The position numbers were made by a program, and so were the translations under genes. The notes beneath the pieces were generated by a model. It was given only the letters and a program-made list of their open reading frames with translations. It was not told the DNA's origin and ran no database searches. From the NCBI GenBank assembly GCA_038874135.1, contig JAVZCZ010000001.1:544001-608000 (forward strand): a stretch of 64,000 bases of DNA, given 5' to 3'. Below, piece by piece: positions 50,642-58,261 of the stretch (positions are counted from its first letter, which is position 1; each line of letters opens with the position of its first letter). Source of the stretch: Candidatus Woesearchaeota archaeon (lineage in GTDB: Archaea; Nanobdellota; Nanobdellia; Woesearchaeales; 0-14-0-80-44-23).

Positions 50642-50938
50642 ATGTTTATAAAAAAACACTTTACGGACAGGGGAATACTTCTTGCAGTAGCTGATGAAAA
50701 CCTAATTGGCAGAAGATTTTCTGAAGGTAAATTTGAGCTGGAAGTTTCAGAGGATTTTTATAAGGGCGAGCTGGTTTCTGAAAAAGAACTTGAAAAACAC
50801 ATGAAGCAGGCGTATCTTCTGAACATAGTTGGAAGCAGTTCAATAAGTGTAGCTCTAAAACTTGGGCTAATTAGCAAAGAAGACATTCTACTTATTGAAG
50901 GGGTTCCTCACGCTCAGTCCATTCTTATTTATGAGTAG
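50642..50938 (+). CDS. DUF424 family protein
   Basis: LAVADENLIG, FYKG, NIVG, GVPHAQ. Confidence 0.88.
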   Translation: MFIKKHFTDRGILLAVADENLIGRRFSEGKFELEVSEDFYKGELVSEKELEKHMKQAYLLNIVGSSSISVALKLGLISKEDILLIEGVPHAQSILIYE

Positions 50939-50941
50939 ATA

Positions 50942-50974
50942 AAAGAATAAGCCCGCATTTCTGCGGGCAAAAAA
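50942..50974 (-). terminator. GC hairpin between convergent genes
   Basis: GCCCGCA-N4-TGCGGGC at 50951-50968, followed by TTATTCTTTT on the minus strand. Confidence 0.55.
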
Positions 50975-51003
50975 TTCCACCCCCAAATTTTCTCGCCAAT
51001 TCC

Positions 51004-51450
51004 TCAAAAGCTGCTGAGGGCTATCATTGTAACAACCTTTTCAACGCCCTCAATACTTCTCAGCTTTTTGAGTATAAAATTGTTAAGCTGGCTTATGTTC
51101 TTGGTTCTGACTTTAATTATCATATCCTTTTCTCCCGTAATGATTGATACTTCAGAGACATTTTCCAAAGCCCTAATTTTTTCTGCAATTTTCTCTTGAT
51201 CTATCAAATGTCCCGACTCGCGCGCTGAGCCAATGTTTACAAGCACATAAGCCAATACGCCAAATCCCAATTTTTCATAGTCGAGCACTGCGGAATATCC
51301 TTTTATAATTCCAGCTTCTTCTAAATTTTTAATTCTGTGATGAACTGTAGTTATAGGCATTCGCGTCTTTCTGGCAATCTCACGGAGACCAGCCCTTGCT
51401 TCCCTCTCCAAAACAGCCAGAATTTTGAAATCTTTTTCATCTATCTGCAT
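51004..51450 (-). CDS. Lrp/AsnC family transcriptional regulator
   Basis: IDEKDFKIL HTH, RIKNLEEAGIIKGY, ITGEKD, IEGVEKVVT. Confidence 0.93.
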   Translation of the reverse strand: MQIDEKDFKILAVLEREARAGLREIARKTRMPITTVHHRIKNLEEAGIIKGYSAVLDYEKLGFGVLAYVLVNIGSARESGHLIDQEKIAEKIRALENVSEVSIITGEKDMIIKVRTKNISQLNNFILKKLRSIEGVEKVVTMIALSSF

Positions 51451-51497
51451 TTTAATTAAAAAATTTTTCATTATTATTTAAATTTTTTGTATTTTTT

Positions 51498-51515
51498 GAA
51501 TATTTTTTAATATTC
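51498..51515. promoter_or_regulatory. Candidate Lrp operator
   Basis: GAATATT-TTTT-AATATTC palindrome between divergent TATA boxes; AT-rich context lowers significance. Confidence 0.35.
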
Positions 51516-51558
51516 TTAAAAAAAGATTTTTATATTTCTCTTTACTTCTTAATTTCTG

Positions 51559-51639
51559 ATGACGCAGCGCCCGTTAATCTGGAGAGGGGTTATGAAAAAG
51601 AGTTCTATAAAAGTTAATGCTGCGTGCATTAATAACTAA
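51559..51639 (+). CDS. Putative 26-aa leader peptide ending Asn-Asn
   Basis: MTQRPLIWRGVMKKSSIKVNAACINN; ATG ~25 nt after TTTATATT; stop codon inside hairpin TAAAGCC-N6-GGCTTTA. Confidence 0.35.
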   Translation: MTQRPLIWRGVMKKSSIKVNAACINN

Positions 51640-51668
51640 AGCCAACCTCGGCTTTACCACATTTTCTA

Positions 51669-52079
51669 TTGCGCGGGGTGAGGAACATCCAAAAACCATA
51701 TCCTTTGGAAGGAGAATATTATGGAATAATATGCAGTGAAGGAAAACAGGTTAGCCTGGTGCAATTGGATTGTGCAACAGATTCTGAAGCAATGATTCAA
51801 GCAGAAATTCTGCTCAGTAAGGTTAGGAATCTTGAACAGATTATTAAATTTCCAAAGCTCAGTTATGCCCACGCGCTCAGATTACTAAACGAAAATTTAG
51901 GTGTTGAAGAGGAAGACTTCTTTACAGAAGGACTGATGCAGCTTAGCAAACTTTTCCAGCAGCCCTTTTTTATATGTGACATTCCGGATACGACCCAGTT
52001 TAATCTGCTCCTAGTCTTAGAAGATGCAACGCCGCTATTCATTTCATACACGACTGTAAGGAAAAATCAAAACATTTAA
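51669..52079 (+). CDS. Degenerate AsnRS-related fragment (possible pseudogene)
   Basis: FPKLSYAHALRLLNE...LSKLFQQPFFICDIP aligns by eye with FPRMRYDEAIKLLNE...LTSLFDTPIIVTHYP of the adjacent AsnRS; start uncertain. Confidence 0.5.
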   Translation: MRGVRNIQKPYPLEGEYYGIICSEGKQVSLVQLDCATDSEAMIQAEILLSKVRNLEQIIKFPKLSYAHALRLLNENLGVEEEDFFTEGLMQLSKLFQQPFFICDIPDTTQFNLLLVLEDATPLFISYTTVRKNQNI

Positions 52080-52132
52080 AACATTACAAGTTTAAATTAA
52101 ACAGAATTCCAATATTAAATGGGTGAAGCTGC

Positions 52133-53428
52133 ATGTCTTTCATTTCAATAAAAGAAGCAATGAACAAGGGAGAGGGCGTTGTTGAACTTAGAGGCTGGGT
52201 TTATAGGGAGAGAAAGAGCAACAGGTTTGCATTCATAGTGCTAAGAGATTCAAGTAACATAATTCAGTGTGTTGTTGAAAAGGACAAGGTCAGTCCAGAA
52301 GTTTGGGCTTCTGCCGAAGCGATAACAGTTGAGTCTTCCTGTGAGGTTAGAGGCAATATTCAGAAAGAGCCAAGAGCACCCACTGGATTTGAAGTTCACG
52401 TTTCAGATTTGAAGGTTGTACAGATTGCAGAACCCTTCCCAATAACCAAGGATAAAAGCCCGGAATTCCTAATGGATAAGCGACACCTCTGGCTGAGAAG
52501 CAGATACCTAACATCCGTGCTTAAAATAAGGAGTACGGTTTTCAAAGCAATACGAGAATACTTCTACTCCAAGGGTTTTTATGAATACCATTCACCCATA
52601 TTCACTTCAGTACAATGCGAGGGCGGTTCAACCCTTTTCAAAGTTGACTATTTCGGCCGTACAGCGTACCTAACCCAAAGCTGGCAGCTCTATGCAGAAG
52701 CTGGAATCTTTTCCTTGGAAAAAATATTTACAATAGCTCCATCTTTCAGGGCGGAAAAGTCAAAAACTTCTAGGCACCTGACAGAGTATTGGCATGCGGA
52801 GATGGAAGCTGCCTGGTGCGATTTTGAAGAATTAATAGGGCATGGAGAAGCTCTTATTAAGCATGTTGTCAAGAGGGTCTTAGAAGAAAATTCAGAGGAA
52901 CTAAAGATTCTTAACAGGGATCCTAAGCTTCTGATTCCCACCCTGGAAAAACCATTTCCGCGCATGAGATATGATGAAGCGATAAAACTCTTGAACGAGA
53001 AATTTAAGCTTAATATTCCCTGGGGTAAGGATTTGAGAACCATAGAAGAGGACAAACTAACATCCTTGTTTGACACGCCAATAATAGTAACTCATTATCC
53101 AAAGAAGATAAAGGCTTTTTACATGAAAGAAAGCCCTGACAATCCCGAAGTGGTTCTCGGCACAGACTTCCTTCTTCCAGAGGGTCACGGCGAAGTTATT
53201 GGCGGTTCCGAGCGTGAGTCTAACCTTGAAAAAATAAAAGAGCGCCTAATAGAGCAGGGCGAAGCGGTTGAACACTACCAATTCTATCTTGACACCAGAA
53301 GATATGGAAGCGTTCCCCACTCCGGCTTCGGGTTAGGTGTTGAGCGGCTGATAAGTTGGATATGCGGTTTGGAAAACATTAAGGATGCGATACCATTCCC
53401 AAGGACAATGCTCAGGTGGACGCCATAA
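52133..53428 (+). CDS. asnS: Asparagine--tRNA ligase
   Basis: OB anticodon domain, RHLWLRS, CEGGSTLF, YLTQSWQLY, FRAEKSKTSRHLTEY, GEVIGGSERE, HSGFGLGVER. Confidence 0.93.
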   Translation: MSFISIKEAMNKGEGVVELRGWVYRERKSNRFAFIVLRDSSNIIQCVVEKDKVSPEVWASAEAITVESSCEVRGNIQKEPRAPTGFEVHVSDLKVVQIAEPFPITKDKSPEFLMDKRHLWLRSRYLTSVLKIRSTVFKAIREYFYSKGFYEYHSPIFTSVQCEGGSTLFKVDYFGRTAYLTQSWQLYAEAGIFSLEKIFTIAPSFRAEKSKTSRHLTEYWHAEMEAAWCDFEELIGHGEALIKHVVKRVLEENSEELKILNRDPKLLIPTLEKPFPRMRYDEAIKLLNEKFKLNIPWGKDLRTIEEDKLTSLFDTPIIVTHYPKKIKAFYMKESPDNPEVVLGTDFLLPEGHGEVIGGSERESNLEKIKERLIEQGEAVEHYQFYLDTRRYGSVPHSGFGLGVERLISWICGLENIKDAIPFPRTMLRWTP

Positions 53429-53470
53429 ACCAAAAATTTAAATATGCCCCTCTTCCCCACAAGAACTAAT

Positions 53471-53543
53471 GGCTTCGTAGCTCAGTCGGTAGAGCGCCTG
53501 ACTGTTAATCAGGAGGTCGGCAGTCCGAGTCTGCCCGAAGCCG
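53471..53543 (+). tRNA. tRNA-Asn(GTT)
   Basis: GGCTTCG/CGAAGCC-G, CCTGA-CT-GTT-AA-TCAGG; T-loop TCCGAGT. Confidence 0.93.
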
Positions 53544-53643
53544 TCCTATTATTAACTTCTGACAGCCTATCTGAGTATAATTGAAAAGATTAATAAATGC
53601 CGCTTAAATTTAATGCTAATAACAAATAAAAGGAGGTTTTCAT

Positions 53644-54237
53644 ATGGAAAGCAAACTTTCAAACGAGTTTGTACTATCAGAAATCTTTCAATCATCTTAC
53701 GAGACAAAAAACAAATTCTATGAAGTTGCGGAGTTATTCGTAATAATTTTAGGATCCTTCCTGATTCCATTCGTATTAGGGCATCCTCAGCTGCTGGTTG
53801 GAACGCTAGTTAACTCTCTTTTAATAATATCTGCAGTGCGCATAAAGGATTATAAGATAATTTTTCCAATAATACTACCCAGCATAGCCGCACTTTCAAG
53901 GGCACTCCTGTTTGGTCCATTCACAAAGTATTTGTTGTTTATGCTGCCATTCATATGGTTGGGAAATCTGCTTCTAGTAATTTTCATAAAACTTATTGGT
54001 TTATATCTTGAAAAAGGAATTATAGCTGCAGGATCATTCGGTTCAGCAGTCAAAGCAGGATTTCTATTCAGCTCAGCATTTTTACTTTTCAAAACAGGGC
54101 TGGTTCCTAAAGCGTTCTTAACAGCATTCGGGATAACTCAGTTTGCCACTGCTCTGGCAGGGCTTGCAGTAGCATATCCCATAGTAAAGATTACTAGCAC
54201 AAGAAGGCGCTTTGTGAAGGGTCATGCAAGAAGATAA
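53644..54237 (+). CDS. Membrane protein, ECF S-component-like, first gene of hydrogenase operon
   Basis: About 6 TM segments; QLLVGTLVN, PFIWLGN, QFATALAG; overlaps hydC start. Confidence 0.65.
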   Translation: MESKLSNEFVLSEIFQSSYETKNKFYEVAELFVIILGSFLIPFVLGHPQLLVGTLVNSLLIISAVRIKDYKIIFPIILPSIAALSRALLFGPFTKYLLFMLPFIWLGNLLLVIFIKLIGLYLEKGIIAAGSFGSAVKAGFLFSSAFLLFKTGLVPKAFLTAFGITQFATALAGLAVAYPIVKITSTRRRFVKGHARR

Positions 54238-54709
54238 CAATCCGGATTTAATCAGGAACATAATCTTAAAATATAAGGACGAGCCAGGAGCACTTCTGCC
54301 GATACTCAAAGAAGTCCAAGATACACACGGATATATTCCGAGACAAGCAATGCTGCGTATAAGTGAAGAGCTTAAAGTTCCACTAAGCAAGGTCTATTCC
54401 GCCGTGACATTCTATAACCAGTTCAAAGAGAAAAAATCTGGAAAGCACACGATAAGAGTATGTCTTGGAACTGCCTGCTGCGTTAGGCGCTCAGAAGAAA
54501 TACTTAAAGCTCTTGAATCAACTCTTGGAATAAAAGAGGGGGAAACTGATGAGAAAGGCCTTTTTACTCTTGAGAGGGTAAACTGCGTAGGCGCCTGCAG
54601 TTTAGGCCCCATAGTGGAGATTGACGGCAAGATCTACTCTAAGATGAACCCCAAGCTGGCAAACAGGCTTATTCAGGAGCTGATAAAGAAAGAGGACTTT
54701 AAAAAATGA
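54224..54709 (+). CDS. hydC: [FeFe]-hydrogenase gamma subunit (NuoE-like, 2Fe-2S)
   Basis: VTFYNQF, CLGTAC, CVGACSLGP. Confidence 0.9.
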   Translation: MQEDNNPDLIRNIILKYKDEPGALLPILKEVQDTHGYIPRQAMLRISEELKVPLSKVYSAVTFYNQFKEKKSGKHTIRVCLGTACCVRRSEEILKALESTLGIKEGETDEKGLFTLERVNCVGACSLGPIVEIDGKIYSKMNPKLANRLIQELIKKEDFKK

Positions 54710-56538
54710 GAGTTCGCGTAGGTTTGGGATCTGCAGGAGTCTCCTCAGGAGCTCTTGAAGTTTATAAACAGTTTTCCCAGCTGGGGCGCGACTTCATTTT
54801 ATCTAAAACTGGAGAGATGGGCGCATCCTTCCTAGCTCCCGTGGTTGAACTTAAAGCTGGCGAATATGAAACATTAATATTTGCTAATGTCAAGCCAGAA
54901 CAATGTGAGAGGATACTCTCTATAGGAGAGCGGCTTGAAAAATCCGGAAGAGAAGTTTGGGAAAGGTTAGTATATGCCAAAAGGCGCGACGGAACACAAA
55001 TCTTCAAGAAAAAGCCGTATGTCGAAGAGCTGGACTTTTTTAAAGGCCAAGTAAAAAATGTTTCAGCAAGGTGCGGCATCATAGATCCTGAGAGCATAGA
55101 AGAATATTACAATGCTGGAGGATTCTCAGCTCTGGCACGAGCACTTCTTATGAATCAGGAGGACATAATTGCAGAGGTAAAACGCTCAGGTCTTAGAGGT
55201 AGAGGAGGTAGTGGCTTCTTTACAGGAGAGAAATGGGAAGCAGTTTTCAAACAAAAATCAGACATAAAGTACCTAATCTGCAACTTTGATGAGGGCGACC
55301 CCGGCGCATTTATGAATAGGGCTCTGGTTGAATCAGATCCCTTCTCGGTTTTGGAAGGAGTAATAATAGCAGCATATGCTGTGGGCGCATCCGAGGCATT
55401 CATATACACCAGGTCTGAGTACCCACTAGCAATCAGCAGGCTTCAAAATGCAATTGAGGAAGCTCAAGCAGCAGAGCTTCTAGGCAGGAACATTCTCAAC
55501 TCTGGCTTCTCGCTTAAGCTCAAACTCAAAACAGGAGCCGGCGCATTTGTTTGCGGAGAAGAAACAGGACTCATAAGCTCGATAGAAGGAGGTGCCGGAA
55601 GGCCTAGGCCTAAGCCACCCTACCCTTCAGAATCAGGGCTTTTCGGAATGCCAACTCTGATAAACAATGTGGAAACATTAGCCAACATTCCCCTAATTAT
55701 AAACAACGGAGCAGAGTGGTTTAGGCAGTTCGGTTCGGAATCTTCTCCCGGGACTAAGATGTTCTCGATAAGTGGAGATGCTCCACGCTCGGGATATGTA
55801 GAGGTGCCCCTAGGAATTCAGCTAAGAAGAATATGCGAGATGGCAGGCCTTAAAGAGTCAGAAGTCAAAGCAGTACAGTTAGGAGGGCCCTCAGGAGGGC
55901 TTGTAAGTAGGGCTCACCTTTCAATTAATTTAGACTATGAGGGGGTGCAGCAGGCAGAAGCCATTATAGGCTCGGGAGGAGTTGTTTTTGTTGGCAATAA
56001 TAGAAAAATTCTGGAGACGATTCAGCACGGGCTGAAATTCCTCATTTCAGAGAGCTGTGGAAGGTGCACTCCTTGCAGGGAAGGCATATTTAGAATGAAC
56101 GAACTTGTTGAAAGGATACAAAGAGGAGAAGGCACGCCCCAAGATGTTCTTAACTTATACCTCCTCTCCAATACGATAAGAGATACATCTCTCTGCGGTC
56201 TTGGAAAAACCGCACCCAACCTTGTGATTTCCAGCATCAGAAACTTCTTTGCAGAGTACGAATCCCTAATTCGCGAGTGGAAGGGAAAACTTCAGAATGT
56301 TTTATCCTACACGATTGATAGCAAGCGCTGTAATGGCTGTCACATATGCGCAACAGTATGTCCCAAAAAAGCGATAAATGGTAGAGCTTTAGAAATACAT
56401 GAGATAAATCAGGAGCTGTGTGTAAAATGCGGCTTGTGTTATAAGAGCTGTCCATACTCTGCAATATTTCAGAATCTTGCTGAGAGAGATAAAAACCTTA
56501 AGATAGAAATTGATAATAGCAACGAAAATGGACTCTGA
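54706..56538 (+). CDS. hydB: [FeFe]-hydrogenase beta subunit (NuoF-like FMN/NAD-binding)
   Basis: GLRGRGGSGF, DEGDPGAFM, CGEETGL, NNVET, GGPSGG, ESCGRCTPCREG...LC, C-terminal 2x[4Fe-4S]. Confidence 0.92.
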   Translation: MRVRVGLGSAGVSSGALEVYKQFSQLGRDFILSKTGEMGASFLAPVVELKAGEYETLIFANVKPEQCERILSIGERLEKSGREVWERLVYAKRRDGTQIFKKKPYVEELDFFKGQVKNVSARCGIIDPESIEEYYNAGGFSALARALLMNQEDIIAEVKRSGLRGRGGSGFFTGEKWEAVFKQKSDIKYLICNFDEGDPGAFMNRALVESDPFSVLEGVIIAAYAVGASEAFIYTRSEYPLAISRLQNAIEEAQAAELLGRNILNSGFSLKLKLKTGAGAFVCGEETGLISSIEGGAGRPRPKPPYPSESGLFGMPTLINNVETLANIPLIINNGAEWFRQFGSESSPGTKMFSISGDAPRSGYVEVPLGIQLRRICEMAGLKESEVKAVQLGGPSGGLVSRAHLSINLDYEGVQQAEAIIGSGGVVFVGNNRKILETIQHGLKFLISESCGRCTPCREGIFRMNELVERIQRGEGTPQDVLNLYLLSNTIRDTSLCGLGKTAPNLVISSIRNFFAEYESLIREWKGKLQNVLSYTIDSKRCNGCHICATVCPKKAINGRALEIHEINQELCVKCGLCYKSCPYSAIFQNLAERDKNLKIEIDNSNENGL

Positions 56539-58261
56539 AAAAACAATTGAAGTGAATGGAAGAGAAATAAAAACAAAGCAGAAGTATCTTTTACAGGCAT
56601 TGGAAGAGGCAGGTTATAATATTCCTAAACTATGTAGCCATCCGGACTTTGAGCCGTTAGCCAACTGCAGGCTTTGCATAGTTGAAGTTGATGGCAGGAT
56701 TAGAACTTCCTGCAACACTATTGTGGAAGACGGCATGACGGTGAATATTGACACTCCTGCTGTGATTGAGGAGAGGCGTCACAACCTTGAACTGATACTT
56801 TCAAATCACCCGTTGGATTGTGATTACTGCTATAAGAACATGAGGTGTGAGCTTCAAGCACTTGCAGAGCGTATAACCAAAACTACGCGCTATGTTGGTC
56901 TTCAGAGAAGAACTGGAGTGGATGAATCTTCTGCATCAATAGTTAGAAATATGGATCAATGCATCCTCTGCGGCAGGTGTATCCTGGCCTGTCAGAGGGC
57001 AGGAGTTTCCCTTTTAGACTATGTAGGCAGAGGCTTTAGCACAGCCATACTTCCCCCTTTCAGACTTAAGCTTTCAGAAACTACTTGCACGAGCTGCGGG
57101 CAGTGCAGCCTGGTTTGCCCTACAGCAGCCATAACTGAGAAGGATGACAGGGCACTAGCATATTCTCTAATAAATGATAAGGACAAGTTTGTAATAGCAC
57201 AGATAGCCCCAGCAGTTAGAGTGAGCATAGGTGAGGAGTTCGGACTCAAACCCGGAACAATTGTAACTGGAAAGTTAGTTGCAGCACTTAAAGAGGTGGG
57301 CTTTGACGCAGTTTGTGACACTTCTCTCGGAGCAGATTTCACAATAGTTGAAGAGGCAGCTGAGCTTATCTCTCGCTTAAAAGCCAGACAGAATGGAGAA
57401 CGAGCAGCACTTCCGATGTTTACGAGCTGCTGCCCGTCCTGGGTGTTCTATGTTGAAGAATTTCTGCCTGAGCTTATTCCGAACCTTTCCACAACAAAAA
57501 GCCCGCACGAGATAATGGCAACACTTCTAAAAACATATTATTCTGAGAAGAAAAAAATTCCAATTGAGAAAATTTCAGTTGTTTCAATAATGCCCTGCAC
57601 TTCAAAAAAAGAGGAAGCGCGCAGGGTGGAACACAGAATAATGGGCTTCCCAGCAGTGGATACAGTTCTCACAGTGAGAGAAGCTTCAAGGATGATACGG
57701 GAGGCGGGCATAAACCTTCCCAACCTGCAGGATGCAGAGTTTGACGACTTGTTGAGAGACGCTTCGGGCGCAGGTCAGATTTTCGGAGCCAGTGGAGGGG
57801 TAATGGAGGCAGTTCTTAGAACAGCCAGCTCAATCTTAAACCACGAAAATTCTAATTCAAAAATAGAATTCAAGGAGGTCAGAGGCCTTTCAGGGGTTAA
57901 GGAGGCTGAATACGAGCTCGGAAGAGAAAGGTTAAGAGTTGCAGTAGTCAATGGTCTTGGAAAAATAAACTCCATTCTTGAAAAGGCAGGAAAAGGCGAG
58001 CTGGACTTTATAGAAGTAATGGCTTGTCCAGGCGGGTGTTCTGGAGGCGGCGGGCAGCCCATCCCAACTACTTCGCACATAGTTTCGGAGAGAATAAAAG
58101 GGCTATACTCCGCTGATGAGCGCGCCCAATTCAGGGAGAGCTTCCATAACCCTATAGTTCAAAAGGTGTACTCTGAATTTTTGGAATGTCCGAATTCAAG
58201 CACAGCTGAAAACCTGCTGCACACCAGGTTTATTCCGAGAAAGCCGTATGGCAACATATGA
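56528..58261 (+). CDS. hydA: [FeFe]-hydrogenase catalytic subunit, group A (A3-type)
   Basis: H-cluster motifs TSCCPSW, MPCTSKKEE, EVMACPGGCSGGGGQP; N-terminal 2Fe-2S, His-ligated 4Fe-4S and 2x4Fe-4S. Confidence 0.95.
   Translation: MDSEKTIEVNGREIKTKQKYLLQALEEAGYNIPKLCSHPDFEPLANCRLCIVEVDGRIRTSCNTIVEDGMTVNIDTPAVIEERRHNLELILSNHPLDCDYCYKNMRCELQALAERITKTTRYVGLQRRTGVDESSASIVRNMDQCILCGRCILACQRAGVSLLDYVGRGFSTAILPPFRLKLSETTCTSCGQCSLVCPTAAITEKDDRALAYSLINDKDKFVIAQIAPAVRVSIGEEFGLKPGTIVTGKLVAALKEVGFDAVCDTSLGADFTIVEEAAELISRLKARQNGERAALPMFTSCCPSWVFYVEEFLPELIPNLSTTKSPHEIMATLLKTYYSEKKKIPIEKISVVSIMPCTSKKEEARRVEHRIMGFPAVDTVLTVREASRMIREAGINLPNLQDAEFDDLLRDASGAGQIFGASGGVMEAVLRTASSILNHENSNSKIEFKEVRGLSGVKEAEYELGRERLRVAVVNGLGKINSILEKAGKGELDFIEVMACPGGCSGGGGQPIPTTSHIVSERIKGLYSADERAQFRESFHNPIVQKVYSEFLECPNSSTAENLLHTRFIPRKPYGNI

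Follow-up and report, generated by a model that had tools for sequence, protein, structure and literature searches.

The 64,000-nucleotide stretch of DNA analysed here, referred to as the window, corresponds to bases 544001–608000 of the single-contig genome (G000; 909,956 bp, 40.8% G+C) of a Candidatus Woesearchaeota archaeon, the DNA of which came from hot-spring metagenomes. In the window, a gene for a regulator of the Lrp/AsnC family (51004–51471, minus strand) diverges from a short open reading frame (ORF) of 26 codons on the plus strand (51559–51639; MTQRPLIWRGVMKKSSIKVNAACINN), which ends with the Asn codons AAT (51631–51633) and AAC (51634–51636) and the stop codon TAA (51637–51639). 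Downstream on the plus strand are a 136-amino-acid ORF related to asparaginyl-tRNA synthetase (AsnRS; 51669–52079), asnS, which encodes an AsnRS of 431 amino acids (52133–53428), and a tRNA-Asn(GTT) gene (53470–53546). A first-pass annotation had described this order and proposed an Asn-sensing attenuator combined with Lrp control. The divergent regulator gene, the TATA box and the short ORF ending AAT AAC TAA were all found, as were the AsnRS-related ORF, asnS and the cognate tRNA gene on the basis of AsnRS similarity, Pfam and ARAGORN/Rfam. The stretch is present in three DNA runs, all from one hot-spring study, and in no listed RNA run; in each of two of the DNA runs a single contig spans it. 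The contig of the first run is identical to the window, and that of the second differs by four single-nucleotide polymorphisms, all within the Lrp gene or asnS and none in 51472–52132. The arrangement is therefore not an assembly artefact; both spanning runs are from the one study and may include the source sample.

Upstream of the short ORF, a putative transcription factor B recognition element (BRE), AAAAAAAG, followed by a TATA-like sequence, TTTTTATATT, was located at 51518–51536 (plus strand), with the TATA box (TTTTTATA/TTTATATT) at 51527–51536. The TATA-like 8-mer ends 22–24 nt before the ATG at 51559. In the whole 0.91-Mb genome, 36 ORFs of 8–45 codons have a TATA box 21–24 nt upstream, and the Asn-Asn tail occurs in this one only. 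None of the other 35 lies beside a gene cognate to its tail, and a genome-wide scan of G000 for TATA-anchored short ORFs with tandem residues beside cognate genes gave no further convincing case. Within the short ORF (51580–51594), a sequence resembling a Shine–Dalgarno (SD) motif, GGAGAGGGG, precedes an in-frame ATG at Met12. Initiation there would yield MKKSSIKVNAACINN, which is similar to the Lys-rich starts of the related peptides described below, and this ATG is a possible SD-led second start in the same frame.

The spacers next to orthologous Lrp genes of the same order were then compared. Relatives are given by codes (G001 etc.), G001 being labelled as the same genus and G003 as the same family (f1) as the organism of the window; G114, G123, G184, G245 and G315, which are flagged as unpublished, enter the tallies only, and no claim depends on them. 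Seventy-seven loci with orthologues of the window's Lrp were gathered from the order, and the first divergent genes were classified. About half of the loci (36 of 77) have an asparagine-supply gene beside Lrp, namely bacterial-type AsnA, archaeal AsnA, AsnB or asnS, and many of the remaining ones adjoin asparaginase-like, GatD-like or GatE genes; in most of the 77, some gene of Asn metabolism is thus next to Lrp, a strongly conserved pairing. Conservation of an Asn-ending short ORF in relatives had been set as a test by the first-pass annotation, and such an ORF recurs: in 11 further loci, the spacer holds a short ATG ORF with a [D/N]-Asn tail, the tail classes counted being Asn-Asn, Asn-Asn-Asn, Asn-Asn plus one or two residues, and Asp-Asn. 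In f1, the G003 ORF ends ...ICMNFDN and is followed by a degenerate paralog and then asnS. Four loci belong to f21: G150 (MAKQHIIKKSEPCLAKALVSNN, tail ...LVSNN), in front of archaeal AsnA and then asnS; G219 (...VSAISNNQ), in front of AsnA; and G023 (...CLANVFFNN) and G316 (...CLANAFFNN), both in front of AsnA and then asnS. The ORF of G042 (f40; ...LFLDQNLLNNN) is followed directly by asnS. AsnA follows the ORFs of G139 (f2; ...VFFDFNNC), G361 (f68; ...VNSNSNNC), G299 (f99; ...INFNNGV) and G225 (f33; ...LFLDN), and AsnB follows that of G035 (f33; ...LFLDN). With the window included, nine of the 12 tails are NN or NNN and three are DN. The loci with the ORF cover seven GTDB families, in which it heads asparagine-supply genes, and their Lrp proteins are just 36–54% identical.

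The frequency of such ORFs was compared with that expected by chance by counting ORFs of 6–60 codons with NN within the last five residues, the window being excluded and mononucleotide shuffles serving as the reference. Loci with an asparagine-supply neighbour carried an NN-tailed ORF in eight of 35 cases against 0.97 expected, and none of 200,000 simulations reached eight. On the reverse strand of the same 35 spacers no NN-tailed ORF was found, and loci with other neighbours had none in 36 (0.66 expected). When only spacers of at least 150 nt were considered, seven of 17 had an NN-tailed ORF. The Asn-tailed ORF is thus associated exclusively with asparagine-supply genes and with this Lrp lineage.

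In 11 of the 12 loci, a TATA-like 8-mer, usually behind an A-rich BRE, ends 22–25 nt before the ATG of the ORF, a spacing seen for 1.9% of ATGs in the window's genome. Because of this promoter geometry, we infer that the ORF is a leaderless first cistron, transcription starting at the A of its ATG. The Asn codons alternate between AAT and AAC among the loci and the stop codons among TAA, TGA and TAG, and the frames stay open for 17–38 codons from the TATA-anchored ATG in AT-rich DNA. The upstream TATA box is at a fixed distance, whereas the next gene lies anywhere from 6 to 153 nt away. These features suggest that what is conserved is a coding constraint and not a TATA-like DNA motif (AATAAT). 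When the spacers of G023 and G316 were compared by eye, the ORF and the hairpin following it looked best conserved. The peptides share a Lys-rich start, a Cys residue, C-L-A-x-A (in f21 and f40) and then a hydrophobic run; their overall conservation is low and their length varies. It is likely, on this comparative evidence, that the ORF class is a selected, asparagine-related cis element. With somewhat less assurance, we regard the short ORF of the window as a leader peptide gene, for which the provisional label asnL, coined here, is proposed.

The genes behind the leaders are of four enzyme kinds with one role, asparagine supply. They include PF03590 AsnA (9e-96 for G139), archaeal AsnA (match to 1nnh at 1e-67 for G150) and AsnB (PF00733 plus GATase). 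The conserved target of the leader is mostly a gene for asparagine synthetase (AsnA, archaeal AsnA or AsnB); asnS either follows this gene or stands by itself. In a quick maximum-likelihood tree of the Lrp proteins, the support values of which are weak, leader-bearing loci cluster (seven state changes against 11.4 in shuffles; one of 500 shuffles was as low). Eight of the 12 leader loci fall in one 13-row group, within which the downstream gene is AsnA, archaeal AsnA, AsnB or asnS. This distribution suggests that the cassette of Lrp gene, divergent promoters and leader was inherited while the gene behind it was exchanged. Outside the order, a divergent Lrp gene lies 85–390 nt upstream of archaeal AsnA in about 68 of 80 loci, in Micrarchaeota, Diapherotrites, Thermoplasmatota, Thorarchaeota and Undinarchaeota as well as in Pontibacter and Clostridium. 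Because the divergent regulator is found with archaeal AsnA in so many phyla, the pairing appears to be very old or frequently co-transferred; it is widespread and resembles the asnC-asnA pair of E. coli. Among these 80 loci there was one marginal Asn-Asn-tailed case, in a Pontibacter (a bacterium). Since the pairs outside the order otherwise lack the leader, it was added within this order. For relatives of the Lrp protein in Thermococcus, Flavobacteriales and metagenome contigs, the divergent neighbours were not asparagine genes and no leader was found.

Two hairpins were predicted at the end of the window's leader ORF. Hairpin 1 (51614–51632, plus strand; TTAATGC-tgcgt-GCATTAA, RNAfold) ends within the first Asn codon. 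The first-pass annotation had also pointed out that the 5′ end of the ORF can pair with a segment near its 3′ end: the 7-nt complement ACGCAGC/GCTGCGT is real, joining the mRNA 5′ end (51562–51568) to 51618–51624 in the 5′ arm and loop of hairpin 1, but the local hairpin competes with this pairing. A helix burying the 5′ AUG is also predicted in G150 and G219. Hairpin 2 (51637–51656, plus strand; TAAAGCC-aacctc-GGCTTTA), likewise noted at first pass, has a 7-bp stem that starts at the stop codon and is followed by CCACATTTTCT (51657–51667). With a minimum free energy (MFE) of −8.0 kcal/mol and z = −4.95 against dinucleotide shuffles, it is the strongest of the set. A hairpin 0–6 nt after the stop codon was also found in G003, G150, G219, G023 and G316, with differing stem sequences and a C/A-rich stretch after each; these are individually weak (z = −1.2 to −1.8). 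An Rfam scan of 50800–53800 with E up to 5 gave the tRNA alone above threshold and no matching leader family.

Two spacers have features of their own. The 143-nt spacer between leader and asnS in G042 (locus L066) contains two strong nested hairpins (region MFE −35 to −48 kcal/mol) with T5/T6 runs, and a TATA-like sequence, TTTATATA, lies 35 nt before the asnS ATG; by folding, this spacer is the best candidate in the set for a true terminator-type attenuator. In G035 (locus L102), AAACGGAGGAA occurs twice between leader and asnB. Its first copy precedes a second short ORF that enters the asnB start in another frame, and an 8-bp hairpin after the leader stop takes in this first SD.

The 136-amino-acid ORF that follows the leader in the window has no Pfam match and no clear start codon or SD. 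It is 31% identical to residues 275–323 of the window's own AsnRS over 49 amino acids (E = 5e-5) and aligns to the middle of a syntenic 268-amino-acid paralog in G003 with 35% identity over 83 amino acids. Aligned with AsnRS and with two genuine archaeal AsnA proteins, it shows none of the three class II motifs (1, 2 and 3) and no GGxERE segment, and a search for homologues of similar length returned only the ORF itself. Judged from its sequence, the ORF is a catalytically dead remnant of an AsnRS-like paralog. A permissive tblastn search with the frame starting at ATG 51617 gave no alignment to motif 2 of AsnRS. The gene order in G003 is the same, with Lrp, the 268-amino-acid ORF and asnS. 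The G003 ORF is AsnRS-like without the anticodon-binding domain (PF00152 9e-8; the AsnRS structure 1x54 1.5e-14; 1nnh/3p8t about 1e-8) and is degenerate, since it lacks motif 2 and the Arg of motif 3. The paralog thus appears to be at three stages of loss in the family, being full-length but degenerate in G003, reduced to a fragment in the window and absent from G001. Elsewhere in the order, a frame of at least 462 amino acids to the right of Lrp in G004 (L054) consists of a 115-amino-acid N-terminal piece resembling the motif 1 region of archaeal AsnA joined to a full asnS, which is another route of paralog loss or merging; the leader ORF is absent there. At L047 (G197:C3:96500-104500), tandem archaeal-AsnA-like ORFs of 320, 241 and 130 amino acids follow Lrp and suggest duplication followed by decay.

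In the window's genome, AsnRS and AspRS are the only PF00152 proteins, and there is no PF03590 AsnA. Outside the window (G000:C1:478807-479520), a 303-amino-acid frame matches only the synthetase domain PF00733 (Asn_synthase), with no glutaminase domain; it is the sole remaining candidate for an asparagine synthetase of the genome, if it is one. The asnS product (PF00152 9e-74, class IIb core; PF01336 3e-13, OB-fold) is the only AsnRS of the genome. A TATA-like sequence, TTTAAATT, is located at 52091–52098, 34 nt upstream of the ATG of asnS, and is followed by the SD GGGTGA at 52121–52126 (all on the plus strand). In G003 and G001, too, asnS has a comparable TATA-like box and an SD-bearing leader in front of it. 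The tRNA-Asn gene has its own TATA box, TTTAAATA (53437–53444, plus strand), 25 nt upstream. tRNA-Asn adjoins asnS in two of the 16 asnS loci checked and is absent from the other 14; in G163 (L019) it lies about 70–90 nt from asnS on the opposite strand. Beyond the tRNA gene (53644–58261) are a gene for a 197-amino-acid membrane protein and then a NuoE/NuoF-like (HydC/HydB-type) operon, and NuoE/NuoF-like genes of the same kind lie directly 3′ of asnS in G001.

The regulator itself has the domains of its family: PF13412 (2e-14) and PF13404 cover residues 10–57 (AsnC-type winged helix-turn-helix), and PF01037 (2e-17) covers residues 87–153 (RAM ligand domain). As called, the ORF has 155 amino acids; a start at Met8 (51450) would give 148. 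The minus-strand TATA box, TTTAAATA at 51482–51475, ends 24 nt before Met8, whereas Met1 is only 3 nt away, and orthologue alignments start near residue 8. For both reasons Met8 is probably the true start, which would make the Lrp mRNA leaderless as well. Between the two divergent TATA boxes lies a perfect palindrome, GAATATT-tttt-AATATTC (51498–51515), as a candidate Lrp operator. It is a single copy in the genome and has no clear conservation in relatives. Because perfect 7-bp inverted repeats occur about once per 1.3 kb, the palindrome argues only weakly for an operator; it was set aside as the Lrp site, being unique yet neither statistically compelling nor visibly conserved.

The arrangement suggests the following mechanism. 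Transcription from the TATA box at 51527–51536 would start at or next to the AUG, and the leaderless ORF would be translated on every transcript. Its last two sense codons are Asn codons, and the single tRNA-Asn(GUU) decodes AAU through wobble pairing. A shortage of Asn-tRNA(Asn) would make the ribosome pause on these codons, where its footprint would cover the stop codon, the 5′ arm of the hairpin that begins there and the strand 51618–51624, which could otherwise pair with the 5′ AUG region. The pause would change the fate of the downstream mRNA so that the asparagine-supply genes behind the leader are expressed more. As output, a hairpin- or factor-dependent signal for termination or cleavage may be read through, as happens at tnaC when the ribosome stalls; ribosomes that stall and queue may protect the short leaderless mRNA against 5′ decay; or the 5′ AUG may be re-opened. 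The divergent Lrp/AsnC protein would additionally control initiation in the promoter region common to both genes, and the signal for this would probably be the free amino acid. In the window, the original target, an AsnRS-like paralog of the asparagine synthetase type, would have decayed to the 136-amino-acid fragment that the cassette now heads, and the leader would reach asnS at 52133 only if transcription reads through 51640–52132. That the ORF is translated, that ribosomes pause in it and that expression rises upon the pause are expectations drawn from its architecture. The sensor architecture, with cognate codons closing a leaderless first cistron, is well supported. We hold with moderate confidence that the ORF senses the charging of tRNA-Asn by ribosome pausing; any particular one of the output steps is doubtful.

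Several findings weigh against this mechanism or narrow it. Three of the tails are D-N and not N-N, and the 12 loci are related, so that the statistics overstate their independence. Many Lrp–asparagine gene pairs with short spacers in the same order have no leader, and among the 80 archaeal-AsnA loci from other phyla (about 68 with a divergent Lrp) no Asn-Asn-tailed short ORF was found at the archaeal loci. The attenuator with a hairpin and T-run terminator that had been suggested at first pass is not a common feature: the post-stop hairpin is limited to f1 and f21 and absent from five families, and T-runs after it are T3–T6 or missing and no commoner than expected. With the hairpin significant in the window alone, a classical terminator/antiterminator pair with a U-run was rejected. 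SD sequestration opened by a stalled ribosome, as in mycobacteria, was modelled by thermodynamic partition-function folding of each leader with the ribosome footprint on the last Asn codon masked; masking altered SD accessibility in only two of the 12 loci, so that folding lends this model no consistent support. At the locus itself, G001 has aspS directly followed by asnS, with no Lrp, leader, paralog or tRNA-Asn. In the window, asnS possibly has its own promoter near 52091–52098 and the first ORF behind the leader is dead, so the leader here could be a relic. Thus the core of the original proposal, an Asn-codon leader combined with Lrp control, has strong comparative backing, whereas its terminator mechanism and its choice of asnS as the target in the window lack such support.

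The last point leads to the alternative that the class is functional and the window's copy is a relic, asnS being transcribed only from its own box. The 136-amino-acid ORF without motifs 1–3, clear start or same-length homologue would fit this, as would the presence of a TATA-like box and an SD-bearing leader ahead of asnS not only in the window but also in G003 and G001, the likewise degenerate paralog of G003 and the loss of the entire cassette from G001, which kept asnS. However, the Lrp gene is intact, and so is the leader with its TATA spacing, its Asn codons and a hairpin that is the strongest of the set. That the remnant frame still runs for 136 codons without a stop, in DNA rich in A and T, suggests recent loss or ongoing use. 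In addition, the 53-nt spacer before asnS resembles the spacers of 32–46 nt found where asnS directly follows the synthetase gene in relatives. We regard relic status as possible and on the whole somewhat unlikely. That the short ORF has no function, being a chance ORF in an AT-rich promoter region or in the decayed 5′ part of the paralog, is strongly disfavoured. AAT and TAA are indeed frequent in AT-rich DNA, but the enrichment (eight against about one, with zero on the reverse strand and zero in control loci), the TATA spacing in 11 of 12 loci against a background of 1.9%, and the position of the ORF as the only one of its kind in the genome contradict chance, and the 51617 frame has no tblastn match to motif 2 of AsnRS. 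Its origin as an out-of-frame by-product of a decayed paralog was rejected because the ORF recurs at other loci.

Two further explanations accept the ORF as functional and differ in what its peptide does. The nascent peptide might sense free asparagine and arrest the ribosome at the stop codon in the manner of TnaC or the fungal arginine attenuator peptide (AAP), so that high asparagine shuts the operon. Such an arrest peptide would agree with the position of the Asn residues, in all cases no more than two residues from the stop, and with the shared Lys-rich start, Cys, C-L-A-x-A (f21/f40) and hydrophobic run, and in G299 and G139 the stop codons lie 6 and 28 nt from the next start, where a held ribosome would cover the start or SD. 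On the other hand, the peptides vary widely (17–38 residues), that of the window has little in common with the others apart from the Cys and the tail, NN is followed by one or two more residues in four loci, and in most loci the stop is 45–153 nt from the next start, too distant for occlusion. Free-amino-acid arrest peptides (TnaC, AAP, SpeFL) need a conserved motif for arrest at or near the stop codon; here, Cys, hydrophobic and terminal Asn positions recur, overall conservation is low and length varies. We consider this explanation improbable. Slightly less credit is given to a small trans-acting protein of asparagine metabolism, for example a partner of Lrp or of the synthetases, with no cis sensor. 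The ORF is conserved with recurring Cys and hydrophobic positions, and bacterial leader peptides with trans functions exist, for example peTrpL (PMC7298713). But the terminal Asn codon or codons are the only invariant feature, length and sequence are poorly conserved, and the partner enzymes come from unrelated families, which fits a shared metabolic signal better than a shared protein contact. Sensing of tRNA-Asn charging by a pausing ribosome is the reading we favour.

Among experimentally studied systems, the closest appears to be the mycobacterial cysteine operons, classical bacterial leaders being a looser match. Those operons are attenuated by leaderless short ORFs with as few as two consecutive Cys codons, in which the stalled ribosome opens a duplex hiding the next SD (Canestrari et al., bioRxiv 10.1101/834739). 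Like these polycysteine ORFs (the "Cys ribulon"), the Asn leaders are leaderless short ORFs placed first in a single-amino-acid supply operon, with at least two consecutive cognate codons near the end, no need for a classical terminator, and one kind of sensor at several loci with differing downstream genes. They differ in occurring in Archaea and not in Actinobacteria, in being specific to asparagine and not cysteine, in forming one locus per genome and not a multi-locus regulon, and in always accompanying a divergent Lrp/AsnC gene. Folding gave no consistent counterpart of the duplex that hides the downstream SD at Ms5788. As in trpL, pheL, hisL, leuL and thrL, tandem cognate codons lie close to the stop, one to a few codons ahead of it, in a short ORF that precedes biosynthetic genes, and in the window, f1 and f21 the predicted hairpins overlap the ORF end with alternative pairings. 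The Asn leaders lack a conserved terminator/antiterminator pair with a U-run and have a leaderless start instead of an SD. To our knowledge, archaeal termination is not hairpin-dependent.

As in the E. coli asnC-asnA pair, an Lrp/AsnC regulator diverges from an ammonia-dependent asparagine synthetase related to class II aminoacyl-tRNA synthetases; unlike that pair, the synthetase-like partner is decayed in the window and a putative leader peptide is encoded, and we know of no leader peptide for E. coli asnA. The 136-amino-acid ORF and the 268-amino-acid ORF of G003 lie where G150, G101 and G022 carry a true archaeal AsnA, and between motifs 2 and 3 they keep similarity to the core of AsnRS and of archaeal asparagine synthetase A (AS-AR; PDB 1nnh, 3p8t). 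AS-AR has a complete core of about 290–310 amino acids with motifs 1–3, and from their sequences neither ORF would count as an active member.

Ribosome-mediated sensing of amino acids through leader peptides is textbook knowledge in Bacteria. The ingredients for such sensing exist in Archaea, where transcription is coupled to translation and leaderless mRNAs are common. A survey of full-text literature, the coverage of which is incomplete and which gives absence of evidence only, returned no archaeal leader-peptide attenuator and no asparagine leader peptide in any organism. The leader class found in several families of small DPANN archaea is a strong candidate for an amino-acid-sensing leader peptide, and would be the first one described from Archaea. 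We see about an even chance that Woesearchaeota-type DPANN carry a portable cassette, consisting of Lrp/AsnC, a divergent promoter and a leaderless Asn-ended leader, in which pausing reports the charging of Asn-tRNA and behind which the enzyme has been exchanged among four kinds. If true, this would give Archaea their first ribosome-mediated sensor of an amino acid, and asparagine its first in any domain of life; the output step would be independent of a bacterial-type terminator. The leader has a clear signal in its two Asn codons, a defined promoter geometry and natural variants; for the question of archaeal attenuation it offers a concrete object that can be moved into genetically tractable archaea. 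The three paralog stages in the window's family would represent reductive evolution caught in progress, and the layered design of an Lrp/AsnC regulator and a leader peptide would have been kept in genomes of less than 1 Mb.

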